In this document: positions 6,421 to 24,710 of the stretch, piece after piece
How positions within the stretch are numbered: the stretch's first letter is position 1
Layout of the letters: every line of letters starts with the position of its first letter
Assembly: GCA_965214675.1 (NCBI GenBank)
Contig: OZ243969.1
Location: 129,001 to 193,000, forward strand
DNA length: 64,000 nucleotides
Direction: 5' to 3'
From: Gammaproteobacteria bacterium
Lineage (GTDB): Bacteria > Pseudomonadota > Gammaproteobacteria > UBA4575
Notes under the pieces: generated by a model
Told to the model about the DNA's origin: nothing
The model's database searches: none
Seen by the model: only the letters and a program-made list of their open reading frames with translations
Translations under genes and position numbers: made by a program

Positions 6421-7044
6421 GTGGGCGGAAAATCACAGCTTGTGACAAGCGACCAGGCACTGGCTGGCAGAGATGCGCCGATGCCGGTAACCAACAGGCA
6501 TTATGTAAGCGGCAACCTGTTATTGCCGCCTTTTCCTGATGGAATGGTCATAGCGATGTTTGGTCTGGGCTGCTTTTGGGGGGCAGAGAGAACATTTTGG
6601 CAGTTGCCGGGAGTGTATTCGACTTCTGTGGGTTATTCTGGCGGATCTACTCCAAACCCGACCTATCGGGAAGTCTGTACCGGCATGACGGGACACAATG
6701 AGGTTGTGCGCGTTGTGTATATGCCCGATCGTATCAGCTATACCCGGTTGCTCCGGTTGTTCTGGGAGTCACATGATCCCACACAGGGGATGCGCCAGGG
6801 CAATGACCTGGGCACCCAGTATCGTTCGGGCATCTACGCGTACGATGAGGCGCAGAAAAGCAGTGCCGAGCAGACCAGGCAGCAATACCAGCAGGCATTA
6901 ACCCAACGAGGCTATTCATCTATCACGACTGAAATTGTTCAGGCTCCTGAATTTTATTATGCGGAGGATTACCATCAGCAATATCTGGCCAAAAACCCGA
7001 ATGGCTACTGCGGACTGGGAGGGACGGGGGTCACATTGACGTGA
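6421..7044 (+). CDS. msrA: peptide methionine sulfoxide reductase A
   Basis: GCFWGAE active-site motif. Near-colinear with E. coli MsrA. GTG start preceded by AGGAGA. Confidence 0.9.
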
Positions 7045-10572: not shown

Positions 10573-10651
10573 AAAAGAACAGGCCTCCTGGCTGGTGGGC
10601 AAAGACGGAGTGTATTAAATTCCATGCTAAGCGCAAAATTATACCCGTTTG

Positions 10652-10800
10652 CGTATTCGATGATAATTATTGGGAATTATGTACCTGAATCCGCAGGGGA
10701 TTCGATACCCGTTTGACGTTTCACAGGCCCGCTACTGCGGCCACCTCCACGTCCAGCAGCCCCATTCTCGAAGGCCAGAATATTCAATGCGGCATTCATG
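10652..10800 (-). ncRNA. predicted TnpB omega-RNA (reRNA) spanning the tnpB 3' end, the right-end TIR and about 20 nt of flank as guide
   Basis: By analogy with characterised TnpB systems. Not verifiable from sequence alone. Confidence 0.3.
10664..10671. repeat. target-site duplication TAATTATT (left copy) flanking the TnpB element
   Basis: Identical 8-mer at 11884-11891, immediately outside both terminal inverted repeats. Confidence 0.7.
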
Positions 10801-11883
10801 TCCGCATTGGCCCGATGCCCGCACTCCACACATTCAAACGTACTTTGTGTTTTACGGTTCTGTTTATCTGTATGTCCACATTCATGGCACGTCTGACTCG
10901 TATACTGTGGGGCAACCTTCACTACACTGGACTTGTACGCCAGGCATTGCTCCAGCTTGTACCAGCTAGAGTTCAGGATGCCCTTGTTAAGTCCTTTTTT
11001 ACCTTTTCCACTAGCCGTCATGCCCTGCGTGTTCAGATCTTCCATGTAAACCGCGTTGTACTTGTCAGCAATCTCCCGGCTGACCTGGTGGCACCAGTTA
11101 GTACGTTTCTGTACGATCTTTTGCTGGGTTCTTGCAGAAAGATTTTTTGCTTTCAGGTAGCGATTGGATGGGGCAACACCCTTCTTTCTATTCCCTGCTT
11201 GTCTGCGTGCCATCATGCGCTGATACCGTCTTTTACGTGCCTCCAGCGTGGATATATCGGGCGTGCAGTACCTTTGCCCATCCGACAGGGTGATCTGTCC
11301 GACATTGCGGTCTATGCCCACAGGCTTGATTGAGGATGGCAGGGCAGTAATCTCAACCTCGTATACGATGTACGCGTACCACTTGCCAGCCTCGTATTTG
11401 AGGGTCCCGCTTTTTGCAATGCCGTCGGTGTAGGGATTGTTTCCACTGAGCCTGAGCTGCCCGATCTTCTGGACGTGCAGGTAATCACCCTGCAACCTGA
11501 ACAGGCTTGTGCCCAAAGGAATAGAGGGTACATGGGTGTATCGTCCATGGAATTTCGGCAGACCGCCTTCGCCCTTGAAAAACTGTTGGTAGGTTGTCTC
11601 GATGGGCTTTAACGCCAAGCGCACAATGTTTGCCGAGTAGTCTTGTAGCCACGGCTTCTGCCTTCTCAGGTTGGTGAAGCGAGGAAGAAGCGAATACCAG
11701 CGTGGATCGCACCGACCATACGCCGTGTATTCATCTTGCAGCACACCGACAAAGTGATTCCACACATAGCGGCAGGCCCCTGCCAGCTCATGCAGCCTGT
11801 GTGCCTTGGCCGGTGTCTGCGGGTGCAGACGATAACGAATCGTGCGGTACGTTTTCATATGCGGATTTTACTACATAATTCCC
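10672..11883 (-). mobile_element. TnpB-only insertion element (IS200/IS605-superfamily cargo) with about 24-bp imperfect terminal inverted repeats, copy 1
   Basis: Ends GGGAATTATGTACCTGAATCCGCA and the reverse complement of GCGGATTTTACTACATAATTCCC are 20/24 identical. Flanked by an 8-bp direct repeat. Single ORF encoding TnpB. No TnpA. Confidence 0.75.
10677..11858 (-). CDS. tnpB: TnpB RNA-guided endonuclease (OrfB), RuvC-like
   Basis: 393 aa. RuvC motifs GIDRNVG, YMEDLN and DADMNAALNI. Zinc finger CHECGH...CVECGH. 86% identical to the second copy at 23504-24685. Confidence 0.88.
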   Translation of the reverse strand: MKTYRTIRYRLHPQTPAKAHRLHELAGACRYVWNHFVGVLQDEYTAYGRCDPRWYSLLPRFTNLRRQKPWLQDYSANIVRLALKPIETTYQQFFKGEGGLPKFHGRYTHVPSIPLGTSLFRLQGDYLHVQKIGQLRLSGNNPYTDGIAKSGTLKYEAGKWYAYIVYEVEITALPSSIKPVGIDRNVGQITLSDGQRYCTPDISTLEARKRRYQRMMARRQAGNRKKGVAPSNRYLKAKNLSARTQQKIVQKRTNWCHQVSREIADKYNAVYMEDLNTQGMTASGKGKKGLNKGILNSSWYKLEQCLAYKSSVVKVAPQYTSQTCHECGHTDKQNRKTQSTFECVECGHRANADMNAALNILAFENGAAGRGGGRSSGPVKRQTGIESPADSGT

Positions 11884-11891
11884 TAATTATT
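11884..11891. repeat. target-site duplication TAATTATT (right copy), overlapping the rnd stop codon
   Basis: Identical to 10664-10671. Confidence 0.7.
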
Positions 11892-12990
11892 CTTCTTCCA
11901 GGAGCTGCTTGAGGTCGCTGCCGAGCAGGTCCAGACGCCAGTTCTGCAGCTTGTACAACTCTCCCGGTGTGCTGATCAGTGTTTCCAGCATGCTGCGGGT
12001 TGCCAGGAAGTTTGGTGCGATGCCGAGTTGTTCAGCACGCTCACAGACAAACGCCTTTGCCTGTTTGAGCAGTTTGCGCTGCTGACGCGACAGAGGTGGC
12101 TTTGTAGTTGCTTCTGGCCAGTCGTCTTTGGGTGTCTGCCTGGCCTTGTCTATGCAATTGAGCAGTTTGTCCGCATACCGATGCCTTTGTTTTCGACTCA
12201 GCACCTCAACCTCATCCAGGGCTGCGATGTTTTTGGGTTGTCGGATTGCGAGTTCACGCAGTGCCTCGTCCCGTATGATCCATTGCCTTGGCCTGTCTTG
12301 CTCCATTGCCTGCTGATTGCGCCAGCTTGCAAGCCACCTGAGGGTATTCAACTGTCTTGATGACAGCTTTCTGGCCCCCTTGACCGATTTCCACAGAGTA
12401 TCGGCATCTGTCCTGTATTTTTCCAAGTCATTCAGAGCCTCGCATTCACTCTCCACCCAATGTGAGCGGCCCTTAGCTGCGAGTTCATTTTTCAATATCG
12501 TGTATATCCGGGACAAATACCGCACATCATTGGCCGCATACTGGATGGCCTTGTCCGACAAGGGACGCTTTGTCCAGACCGTACGGGACAGGGATTTGTC
12601 CAGCTGCATGCCGCACAGCCTGTCGACCAACTGGGCGTAGCTGATCTGATCACCGTACCCGAGTGCACTTGCAGCAATCTGGGTATCGAAGACAGGATCG
12701 GGGATTTGACCATTGATCATGAGCAGGATTTCGAGGTCCTGTCGGCCGGCATGAAAAACTTTTGTGATGGTTTTCGAGACAAAAAGCTTATTCAGTGACG
12801 ACAAGTCATTTATGATGAGCGCGTCGACACAGGCAATCCGGGATTGCGTGGCTATTTGTATCAGACACAACTTGGGATAGTACGTGTCTTCTCGCATGAA
12901 TTCGGTGTCTACGGAAATCCAGTCCAGGCAGTTTGCATGTGTGCAAAAGGCCTCCAATTGATCCACACTGGTTATGATTTCAATTTCCAT
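11887..12990 (-). CDS. rnd: ribonuclease D
   Basis: DEDDy exonuclease motifs (VDTEF, HAGRQDLEIL, YAANDVRYL) and an HRDC-like C-terminus. Start set at MEIEIIT, which aligns with the E. coli MNYQMITT. Confidence 0.85.
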   Translation of the reverse strand: MEIEIITSVDQLEAFCTHANCLDWISVDTEFMREDTYYPKLCLIQIATQSRIACVDALIINDLSSLNKLFVSKTITKVFHAGRQDLEILLMINGQIPDPVFDTQIAASALGYGDQISYAQLVDRLCGMQLDKSLSRTVWTKRPLSDKAIQYAANDVRYLSRIYTILKNELAAKGRSHWVESECEALNDLEKYRTDADTLWKSVKGARKLSSRQLNTLRWLASWRNQQAMEQDRPRQWIIRDEALRELAIRQPKNIAALDEVEVLSRKQRHRYADKLLNCIDKARQTPKDDWPEATTKPPLSRQQRKLLKQAKAFVCERAEQLGIAPNFLATRSMLETLISTPGELYKLQNWRLDLLGSDLKQLLEEE

Positions 12991-23366: not shown

Positions 23367-23481
23367 TTATTGAAAATACCGGGCAAATACGTTGGGTAGC
23401 AGACATCGTATAGTCAGTTTCAGCCATTATTGATTTTGCCAAATTGCATGTGTAATGCCCAGTTATCTGAAGTAATATTGT

Positions 23482-24690
23482 GGGATTATGTAGCAAAATC
23501 CGCATGAAGACACACCGTACCATTTGTTACCGTCTGCACCCGCAAACACAGGCCAAGGCCCGCAAGCTGCATGAACTGGCAGGCGCCTGCCGCTATGTCT
23601 GGAATCACTTTGTCGGTGTGCTGCAAGATGAGTACAAGGCCTATGGGCGGTGTGATCCACGCTGGTTTGTGTTGAATTACCGATTTGCCAACCTGCGAAA
23701 GCAGGTGCCATGGCTGAAAGACTATGCATCCAACATTGTCCGGTTGTCATTAAAACCCATCGAGACAGCATACAAGCAATTCTACAAGGGAGAAGGCGGG
23801 CTGCCTAAATTCCACGGTAAACATACACACTCCCCATCTATTCCTTTGGGTGCAGGCTTGTTCAGGTTGCAGGGTGATTACCTGCATGTCCAGAAGATCG
23901 GGCAGCTCAAGCTGACAGGCAATAATCCTTATCCGGACGGTATCGTCAAGAGTGGTACGATCAAGTACGAAGCAGGCAAGTGGTATGCCTACATCACCAG
24001 TGAAGTACAGATCACGGCATTACCTGCATCCATCAAGCCTGTAGGCATAGACCGCAATGTCGGGCAGATTACGCTTTCAGACGGGCAAAGGTACTGCACG
24101 CCGGATACAGCCATGCTGGAAGCCCGGAAGCGCAGATACCAAAGAATGATGGCGCGCAGACAGAAAGGAAGCAGGAAGCAAGGGATCAAGCCCTCCAATC
24201 GCTACCTGAAAGCAAAGGGCCTTGCGGCACGCACTCAACAGCACATCGTGCAGAAACGTACAAACTGGTGTCACCAGGTATCCAGAGAAATTGCCGACCA
24301 GTATAACGTGGTCTACATGGAAGATCTGAATACGCAGGGCATGACGGCTAGTGGAAAAGGTAAAAAAGGACTTAACAAGGGCATCCTGAACTCTAGCTGG
24401 TACAAGCTGGAGCAGTGCCTGTCGTACAAGTCCAGTGTAGTGAAGGTTGCCCCACAGTACACGAGTCAGACGTGCCATGAATGTGGGCATGTCGACAAGA
24501 AGAATCGAAAGACCCAGTCAGGCTTTGAGTGCGTAGCCTGTGGGCATCGGGATAATGCGGACATGAATGCCGCATTGAATATTATGGCCTTCGGGAATGG
24601 GGCTGCTGGACGTGGAGGTCGCCGCAGTAGCGGGCCTGTGAAGCGTCAAACGGGTATCGAATCCCCTGCGGATTTAGGTACATAATTCCC
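23482..24690 (+). mobile_element. TnpB-only insertion element with terminal inverted repeats, copy 2 (diverged)
   Basis: Ends GGGATTATGTAGCAAAATCCGCA and TGCGGATTTAGGTACATAATTCCC are inverted copies. Flanks AATATTGT and TATTGGTA share only TATTG, so the target-site duplication is eroded. Inserted in the divergent hemA/TPR-lolB promoter region. Confidence 0.75.
23504..24685 (+). CDS. tnpB: TnpB RNA-guided endonuclease (OrfB), RuvC-like
   Basis: 393 aa from MKTHRT. Same RuvC and Zn-finger motifs as copy 1. The ORF is intact. Confidence 0.88.
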   Translation: MKTHRTICYRLHPQTQAKARKLHELAGACRYVWNHFVGVLQDEYKAYGRCDPRWFVLNYRFANLRKQVPWLKDYASNIVRLSLKPIETAYKQFYKGEGGLPKFHGKHTHSPSIPLGAGLFRLQGDYLHVQKIGQLKLTGNNPYPDGIVKSGTIKYEAGKWYAYITSEVQITALPASIKPVGIDRNVGQITLSDGQRYCTPDTAMLEARKRRYQRMMARRQKGSRKQGIKPSNRYLKAKGLAARTQQHIVQKRTNWCHQVSREIADQYNVVYMEDLNTQGMTASGKGKKGLNKGILNSSWYKLEQCLSYKSSVVKVAPQYTSQTCHECGHVDKKNRKTQSGFECVACGHRDNADMNAALNIMAFGNGAAGRGGRRSSGPVKRQTGIESPADLGT

Positions 24691-24710
24691 TATTGGTATA
24701 GTCTAATCGA
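24560..24710 (+). ncRNA. predicted TnpB omega-RNA with a guide extending into the flank TATTGGTATAGTCTAATC
   Basis: Analogy only. Confidence 0.3.

Follow-up and report, generated by a model that had tools for sequence, protein, structure and literature searches.

An element of 1212 bp whose only gene encodes TnpB, an RNA-guided nuclease, lies between the ends of an IS1595-family DDE transposon in a stretch of 64,000 nt from a Gammaproteobacteria bacterium of the UBA4575 lineage (assembly GCA_965214675.1, contig OZ243969.1, positions 129,001–193,000). We refer to this whole stretch as the window, and coordinates are those of the window unless another locus is named. The element occupies 10672–11883, and its one intact tnpB is on the minus strand. 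Its IS1595-type ends and its 8-bp footprint are shared with elements that encode an IS1595 transposase, with forms that carry other cargo, and with MITEs (miniature transposable elements with inverted repeats). We consider it probable—at roughly three chances in four—that the element is a non-autonomous IS1595-family DDE transposon, with tnpB and an overlapping omega-RNA scaffold as its interior, that it is moved in trans, and that its TnpB homes to the empty site. That this particular copy moves in trans is something we infer from its relatives.

Boundaries and content of the element

A repeat search returned, as the longest inverted repeat of the region, a pair of 24-nt terminal inverted repeats (TIRs), GGGAATTATGTACCTGAATCCGCA at 10672–10695 and its inverted partner TGCGGATTTTACTACATAATTCCC at 11860–11883, which agree at 20 of 24 positions (83%) and are identical over the outer 12. 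Immediately outside them, direct reading finds TAATTATT on both sides, at 10664–10671 and 11884–11891. The first-pass annotation of this DNA had described a TnpB-only element without TnpA, bounded by such TIRs and by a perfect flanking 8-mer taken to be a target-site duplication (TSD), and each part of that description has held up. The 12-nt terminus, with at most one mismatch, occurs three times in the window against 0.14 expected, and none of 100 shuffled sequences reaches three. The sole long open reading frame (ORF) of the element, at 10677–11858 on the minus strand (393 aa), is tnpB by Pfam and NCBIfam, and an ORF and Pfam search found no transposase inside the element. The gene is fitted closely between the repeats, as the annotation had also proposed: the ATG (11856–11858) stands 1 nt from the inner edge of the left TIR, the TAA stop (10677–10679) falls within the right TIR, and the 3′ end of the gene is 5 nt from the end of the element. 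No obvious ribosome-binding site of its own precedes tnpB. Upstream ATGs fused in frame with tnpB were considered and set aside on inspection, because in the window copy the reading frames are incompatible. The left copy of the TSD, at 11884–11891, includes the TAA stop of the upstream RNase D gene. The reconstructed empty site reads ...GGAAGAAG, then AATAATTA, then TCATCGAATACG; in the occupied state, the right junction is preceded by TTCCC.

The features of the element are as follows, from its left flank to its right flank, with the second copy last.

11892–11895, minus strand: position of the candidate transposon-associated motif (TAM), GAAG on the element strand, directly 5′ of the left duplicated 8-mer
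11884–11891, no strand: left-end copy of the TSD, TAATTATT on the plus strand and AATAATTA on the element strand, by direct reading
11860–11883, minus strand: left TIR, GGGAATTATGTAGTAAAATCCGCA on the element strand, from the repeat search and the alignment of the two window copies
10677–11858, minus strand: tnpB, 393 aa, encoding an RNA-guided nuclease of ISDra2-like type, from the ORF, Pfam, NCBIfam, the family alignment and a structure match
10681–10806, minus strand: conserved structured RNA, a putative omega-RNA (right-end RNA, reRNA) scaffold that overlaps the 3′ end of tnpB and runs into the right TIR, from covariation
10672–10695, minus strand: right TIR, ending ...TGCGGATTCAGGTACATAATTCCC on the element strand; the tnpB stop falls inside this repeat, the inner half of which is an arm of the last RNA hairpin
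10664–10671, no strand: right-end copy of the TSD, by direct reading; on the omega-RNA model for ISDra2-type TnpB, it would be guide nt 1–8
10652–10671, minus strand: putative guide-encoding flank, about 16–20 nt past the right end, AATAATTATCATCGAATACG, by analogy with characterized TnpB systems
23481–24690, plus strand: diverged second copy, with an intact tnpB (23504–24685), an intact right TIR (24667–24690) and a degenerate left terminus, TGGGATTATGTAG...

The third occurrence of the 12-nt terminus led to this second copy. The two copies share 81.6% nucleotide identity, and in an alignment that included their flanks, homology begins and ends exactly at the proposed termini; the boundaries of the element are thus independently confirmed. 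Copy 2 is flanked by only a 5-bp repeat, TATTG, at 23476–23480 and 24691–24695, and its left terminus is mutated (TGGGATTATG...), which suggests that it is the older copy and perhaps immobile now. It sits between hemA and a TPR/LolB-like gene.

Judged by its sequence, the window protein is a typical ISDra2-like TnpB with its catalytic residues intact. It matches the Pfam domains HTH_OrfB_IS605, OrfB_IS605, and Cas12f1-like_TNB, scores 218 bits with the NCBIfam model guided_TnpB, and scores 171 bits with the IS200_TnpB model, under that model's 425-bit cut-off. The RuvC motifs and CxxC..CxxC zinc finger picked out in the first-pass annotation are borne out by the family alignment, in which the RuvC triad (D183, E273, D353) and the four cysteines (C324/C327/C343/C346) are invariant. 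The nearest solved structure is that of ISDra2 TnpB (8EXA/8H1J; E=3e-26), with window residues 9–369 aligned.

A family of tnpB elements with a variable 8-bp duplication

A search for relatives, limited to one genome per species, recovered 80 loci (L001–L080) with 36–78% protein identity. Nearly all are from metagenome-assembled genomes of sponge symbionts in several phyla, with hosts that include Gammaproteobacteria (Ca. Oxydemutator, Ca. Porisulfidus, Rariloculaceae), Thermodesulfobacteriota/Dadabacteria, Opitutales, Poribacteria, Caldilineaceae, and Spirochaetia. The tnpB-bearing form thus numbers at least 80 loci. At most of them, an unbiased search for inverted repeats turned up termini of the GGGAATTATATA type on both sides, and a motif-anchored scan gives element lengths of 1245–1360 bp. 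The unbiased aligner worked on the TnpB loci and failed on most IS1595 relatives, whose TIRs are short; motif-anchored detection was therefore used. No transposase lies between the TIRs at any of the 80 loci.

The flanking 8-mers are identical at all eight positions for 36 TIR pairs, one of which bounds the IS1595 element of locus L009 described below, and at seven of eight positions for nine further pairs, and their sequence varies from site to site. Because the 8-mers match within a copy but differ between copies, they represent a true target-site duplication rather than a fixed target of IS605 type; the same difference between copies rules out the candidate explanation that the 8-mer is such a fixed target combined with a right-end cleavage site. 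The first-pass annotation had allowed for coincidence should other copies lack the TIRs or the duplication, and other copies have both. Even internally deleted derivatives (L077, L078, L079) retain the termini and the duplication. Within single genomes, copies that are 97–99% identical occupy different sites with different duplications (L052/L055/L056; L015/L016), and the family has therefore moved recently. Chromosomes of complete metagenome-assembled genomes with recent copies include OY763921.1, OZ244052.1, and OZ241323.1. Relatives with conserved termini occur in sponge-associated bacteria from six or more phyla, a distribution indicative of repeated horizontal transfer among members of the sponge microbiome.

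More distant TnpBs from viral contigs (nine proteins with 22–27% identity, from a profile search) are without these termini and serve as a negative control. One viral contig does carry a TnpB-only element of this kind: at L235 2157–3334, a gene whose product has 23% identity to the window protein lies between IS1595-type termini and a perfect AAAAATAT duplication. Its RNA region retains the GCGTCAAAA motif, and an extended −10-like sequence, TGTGGTATAAT, is found just inside the left end. The lineage therefore extends beyond sponge symbionts. A composite pattern of CGTCAAA, a gap, and the terminus gave 39 matches in viral contigs, of which only L235 is a real TnpB element and the rest are chance.

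Shared ends with IS1595-family elements

The first-pass annotation had offered two readings of the architecture, one of which was a non-autonomous derivative of a DDE-type insertion sequence, mobilized in trans. This reading gains support from the finding that the same ends bound DDE-encoding IS1595 elements. At L009 238–1519, a complete IS1595 element of 1282 bp lies 1.4 kb from the TnpB element of the same genome; both of its termini are GGGAACTATATACTATTCTGCACA, it has a perfect ATTGCCGC duplication, and its outer 14 nt are those of the neighboring TnpB element. The 307-aa ORF of this element matches DDE_Tnp_IS1595 (1e-43), Zn_ribbon_IS1595, and the NCBIfam model transpos_IS1595 (199 bits). 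IS1595-family elements usually generate 8-bp duplications and carry both of these Pfam domains (PMC8101967).

Relatives of the L009 transposase from metagenomes, together with a terminus scan of viral contigs (which gave at least 120 stretches), supplied control elements. At least 74 TIR-bounded elements in this set have the GGGAATTATATAC terminus and duplications matching at seven or more of eight positions. About 48 unique sites among them belong to transposase-encoding elements, and the remainder are MITEs or cargo forms; by class, the set comprises transposase-encoding elements of 1.3–1.8 kb, passenger-gene forms of 2–4 kb, MITEs of 263–900 bp, and the one TnpB-only element (L235). The outer 12–14 nt of the window TIRs match those of dozens of transposase-encoding IS1595-family elements, and the left end of one, at L091 (GGGAATTATATACTTAAATCCGCAAT), resembles the window TIR over about 24 nt. 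The end consensus that ISfinder gives for the ISNwi1 group, "ggnnatTAT", may serve as a lead. Neither among the 80 TnpB loci nor among the 74 IS1595-type elements do tnpB and a transposase occur in one element. The first-pass annotation had proposed looking for an autonomous partner with the same TIRs: transposase-encoding elements with such termini occur elsewhere, one of them (L009) in a genome that has a TnpB element, and the 64-kb window encodes no IS1595 transposase. The window element has GG-initial TIRs of about 24 nt and an 8-bp TSD, and the DDE_Tnp_IS1595 gene is absent from it; it is therefore classed only as a non-autonomous derivative of this family.

Several further arrangements were noted. 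Two elements with the same termini (L091 2896–4560+ and L145 805–2822) carry a DNA methyltransferase and an HNH/endonuclease-VII-like ORF as cargo, possibly a mobile restriction-modification pair; the L145 transposase is truncated. At L012 and L080 (22–1137, 2903–2942), IS1595 transposase gene fragments and an extra IS1595-type terminus, GAGAATTATATACTTTAAG, occur 13 bp away from the TnpB element's left end, which suggests nested or adjacent insertions of both element types. Together with the pairing at L009, these remnants lend indirect support to mobilization by an IS1595 transposase. Many MITEs of 235–480 bp with the same termini, most with perfect 8-bp duplications, are found in phage or prophage contigs (L172, L183, L205, L211, L214, L224, L236, L272, L295); the 235-bp MITE at L295 5489–5723 has the window's ATGTAG terminus variant and no duplication. 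Beside the IS1595 and TnpB elements of L009, four tandem copies of a repeat starting GGGAATTGTCTAGTGCAGAACC, each following TCCAAGGGAG, are spaced at 68 bp (1693–1897), and a related copy lies 5 kb from this tandem array, at 7040; these may be an array, REP-like (repetitive extragenic palindromic) sequences, or MITE fragments.

A putative omega-RNA at the right end

In an alignment of 16 diverse members, the last ~230 nt show strong nucleotide conservation (GGACGTGGAGG, GAAGCGTCAAA), and this stretch codes only for a low-complexity tail past the RuvC-III motif. An Rfam search of the element returned no matching family, and the case for an RNA is therefore made by covariation. RNAalifold predicts six helices with 27 pairs in total, and the last helices use the inner half of the right TIR. 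On the predicted structure, 95.6% of cells are paired, compared with 31–48% when the partners are slid; the covariation score is 0.472, compared with at most 0.115 in the slid controls, and double-sided changes affect 12 pairs, compared with 1–4. The modeled structure looks as an omega-RNA scaffold ending at the right terminus would, and we regard it as a putative one.

The two window copies show a corresponding pattern. In the last 44 codons, the identical codon is used at 37 of 38 conserved residues, against about half to three-quarters elsewhere. Nucleotide identity between the copies rises from ~75% to 95–97% in two 3′ blocks (10984–10884 and 10783–10672, compared with 24380–24690), which are separated by a block at 74%. 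The distal block (10783–10672) fits constraint on the predicted RNA structure. For the proximal block (element nt 801–1000), which lies upstream of that structure, gene conversion is a possible cause, as is a longer RNA.

A candidate motif in the left flank

A guide transcribed from the flank past the right end would open with the duplicated 8-mer. Its cognate target would then be the unoccupied site, with the TAM expected directly 5′ of the 8-mer. We analyzed the flanks of 40 unique TnpB-element sites, oriented by tnpB, with 70 IS1595/MITE sites as controls. At the TnpB-element sites, the base at −1 is a purine in 39 of 40 cases and the first duplicated base is A in 34 of 40, and C occurs at −1, −2, and −3 in 0, 1, and 1 of 40; no mirrored signal is present on the right side of these 40 sites. 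At the 70 control sites, the sole preference is a symmetric one for A/T at duplicated positions 2–3 and 6–7, with a purine at −1 in 65 of 140 cases and A at position 1 in 50 of 140 (Fisher tests of TnpB-element against control sites, p=3e-10 and 2e-8). The three positions that lack C match those of the CCC at the end of the right terminus, in keeping with self-avoidance. Taken on its sequence, the flank signal is a candidate TAM, purine-rich and C-free, although the motif is degenerate and the controls are from other hosts.

It is also possible, with a substantial minority of the probability, that the flank signal is not a TAM. It could instead reflect the target preference of the IS1595 transposases in these hosts, or selection for translation-initiation-like contexts (AGG- or ATG-like) that let tnpB or the downstream gene be expressed. 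In favor of this reading, the motif is degenerate and the control sites come from different hosts; ATG(R) ends at −1 or −2 in 11 of 40 sites and AGG does so in 6 of 40, resembling start codons and ribosome-binding sites; and tnpB has no obvious ribosome-binding site itself. However, the signal is in a fixed register without a mirror image on the right, the IS1595/MITE controls have a symmetric preference only, and the three positions from which C is excluded are precisely those where the right terminus has CCC, which self-avoidance would predict.

Proposed mechanism and alternative explanations

In the mechanism that we favor, an IS1595-family transposase encoded elsewhere in the genome would bind the shared termini and move the element by DDE chemistry, its staggered cut yielding the 8-bp duplication. 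The RNA directing TnpB would have a scaffold that extends to the right terminus and a guide read from the flanking DNA, with the duplicated 8-mer at its start. The target would be the unoccupied or precisely excised site, recognized via a short purine-rich, C-free motif immediately 5′ of the 8-mer. A cut at the empty site would favor restoring the element by recombination, and the occupied site would be shielded from self-cleavage by the CCC of the right terminus.

Several observations weigh against this proposal. The 64-kb window encodes no IS1595 transposase. The window copies have diverged to 81.6% identity, and the left end of copy 2 is degenerate, so activity here may date from long ago. 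A search for an empty-site allele gave none: the one other assembly in which an exact look-up recovered the identical RNase D, from a near-identical strain, carries the same insertion at 99.8% identity. (An exact look-up of the window TnpB sequence found none on record.) The guide position and TAM of the window element are predictions, the flank motif (roughly D-K-R then A) is weak as well as degenerate, and the control sites come from other transposases as well as other hosts. Finally, DDE excision already leaves a double-strand break, so that the benefit of homing by TnpB is less obvious than it is for IS605 (PMC13565253).

Some of these observations would also be expected of a stranded relic. 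It is conceivable, if on balance unlikely, that the window copy arrived by IS1595-type transposition, that the matching transposase has since been lost, and that the element is now immobile, its TnpB decaying or kept for another role. The lack of a transposase in the window and the divergence of the copies, with the mutated left terminus and truncated duplication of copy 2, are in keeping with such a history, and most TnpB clusters look immobile (Altae-Tran et al., PMC10691335). However, the outer 12 nt of the termini of copy 1 are perfect, as is its 8-bp duplication, and its ORF is intact, with every catalytic residue in place; the window covers only 64 kb of the genome; and related genomes show recent movement.

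An ordinary origin within IS200/IS605 is very improbable. On this account, the element would be a tnpB-only member of the IS1341 group, moved as single-stranded DNA by the Y1 HUH transposase TnpA, and its inverted repeat and 8-mer would be coincidental, or the 8-mer would be a conserved target plus the right-end cleavage site. The protein is indeed a typical ISDra2-like TnpB, and the right end has a hairpin. Yet the 8-mers match within a copy and differ between copies (in the 36 and nine cases above), no significant hairpin is present at the left end (z=−0.97 and +1.5 against shuffles), and the termini are inverted rather than direct and are common to IS1595 DDE elements and MITEs. The literature consulted gives IS200/IS605 elements, the IS1341 group included, neither TIRs nor duplications (PMC13565253). 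The first-pass annotation had called the architecture atypical for IS200/IS605 unless IS1341-group elements should routinely have both features, and that assessment is upheld.

Least probable is that the element is autonomous and inserted by TnpB, alone or with host factors: no transposase occurs inside any of the 80 loci, but TnpB is established as an RNA-guided nuclease dispensable for transposition (PMC13565253), and the element has the termini and footprint of a DDE family, members and MITEs of which are found without any tnpB.

Comparison with known systems

The other reading offered at first pass, an undescribed TnpB carrier architecture, holds only in part, as TnpBs associated with DDE transposases and inverted repeats have been reported. 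Altae-Tran et al. (2023, PNAS, PMC10691335) described six TnpB branches (DDE-1 to DDE-6) with DDE transposases, all with inverted terminal repeats, and inferred that solo TnpBs with the same ends move in trans. The DDE families of such branches are ISL2, IS630, and IS1031, and these associations are rare in prokaryotes according to a 2026 review (PMC13565253). The window element resembles the six branches in that TnpB lies within an inverted-repeat transposon, with its 3′ end near the transposon end (here 5 nt; the criterion was at most 250 bp), and in that the ends are shared with transposase-bearing elements. It differs from them in its IS1595 partner—a distinction drawn from the families named in the main texts—in having no transposase in cis in any member examined, and in a duplication that is 8 bp and variable rather than 2–3 bp or a fixed TA. 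IS1595 is absent as a TnpB partner from the main texts of PMC10691335 and PMC13565253, and our literature searches found no report of one. The general idea of TnpB in DDE inverted-repeat transposons has thus been known since 2023, and it is the IS1595 partner that appears to be undescribed.

The closest functional analog lies outside bacteria, among the Fanzor-only elements with TIRs and a TSD. The Spodoptera frugiperda ascovirus harbors such a non-autonomous element, in which the TIR and a short duplication lie within the guide-RNA scaffold (Yoon et al., 2023, PMC10711439; Bao and Jurka, 2013, PMC3627910). The Fanzor1/Fanzor2* elements and the window element have in common a TnpB-family nuclease as the sole gene of a TIR/TSD element and, on the omega-RNA model of the window element, a TIR in the guide-RNA scaffold and a guide past the end. 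Unlike the window element, the Fanzor elements are eukaryotic or viral, belong with other transposase superfamilies, and have short duplications that are absorbed into the scaffold. The variable 8-bp duplication of the window element cannot be scaffold and would instead be guide, which would shift the presumed TAM 8 bp from the left end. We found no report in the literature that links Fanzor to Merlin, the eukaryotic relative of IS1595.

From the IS1341 group and ISDra2, the window TnpB differs little: it belongs to the same protein family, has the same size, order of domains, and catalytic residues, and is accompanied by a putative omega-RNA that likewise overlaps the gene at its 3′ end. The contrast is in the element. 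IS200/IS605 elements have subterminal hairpins at both ends on one strand, which Y1 TnpA recognizes, and a fixed 4–5 nt target at the left end (PMC13565253), whereas the window element has TIRs, an 8-bp duplication, and hairpins at the right end only. With IS1595 insertion sequences, passenger forms, and MITEs, it shares the GG-initial ~24-nt termini, the A/T-rich 8-bp duplication, and the propensity for passengers. Unlike the insertion sequences, it has no DDE_Tnp_IS1595, and its cargo is an RNA-guided nuclease together with its putative RNA, which would read out across the right terminus.

Implications

TnpB is the ancestor of Cas12 and is under development as a compact genome editor, and what is known of its biology comes almost wholly from elements of the IS605 and IS607 types, whose excision leaves no scar. 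Here, an RNA-guided nuclease persists, diversifies, and has recently moved within a DDE family of the cut-and-paste kind, and in no case does it carry the transposase. This raises the question of what use guide-directed cutting might be to a transposon whose excision already breaks the chromosome, and of how the geometry of TAM and guide is arranged when a variable 8-bp duplication separates the left end from the TAM. The family also supplies naturally occurring ISDra2-like TnpBs whose TAM may be purine-rich, a prokaryotic parallel to Fanzor-bearing DDE transposons, and a case in which one mobile element has spread horizontally among sponge symbionts that are not related to each other.

A broader proposal may be put forward tentatively, at rather less than even odds: that a TnpB/omega-RNA lineage left its usual HUH or serine-recombinase transposons to become an obligate hitch-hiker on IS1595 transposases, never with a transposase in cis, spread over several phyla of sponge symbionts, and adapted its homing to a variable 8-bp TSD. 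In this arrangement, the guide would open with the 8-mer, 8 bp would separate the TAM from the left end, and the CCC of the terminus would act as a self-protecting non-TAM. If true, this would be the bacterial counterpart of the eukaryotic Fanzor-in-DDE-transposon arrangement, in bacterial relatives of Merlin.

Genomic setting of the insertion

In the window, tnpB has the same orientation as rnd, bolA, and metY. A sigma-70-like promoter match (TTATCA-17-TATAAT, 10 of 12 positions; 10638–10666, minus strand) starts inside the right-hand duplicated 8-mer and faces bolA, and the insertion lies just upstream of what may be bolA's own promoter.

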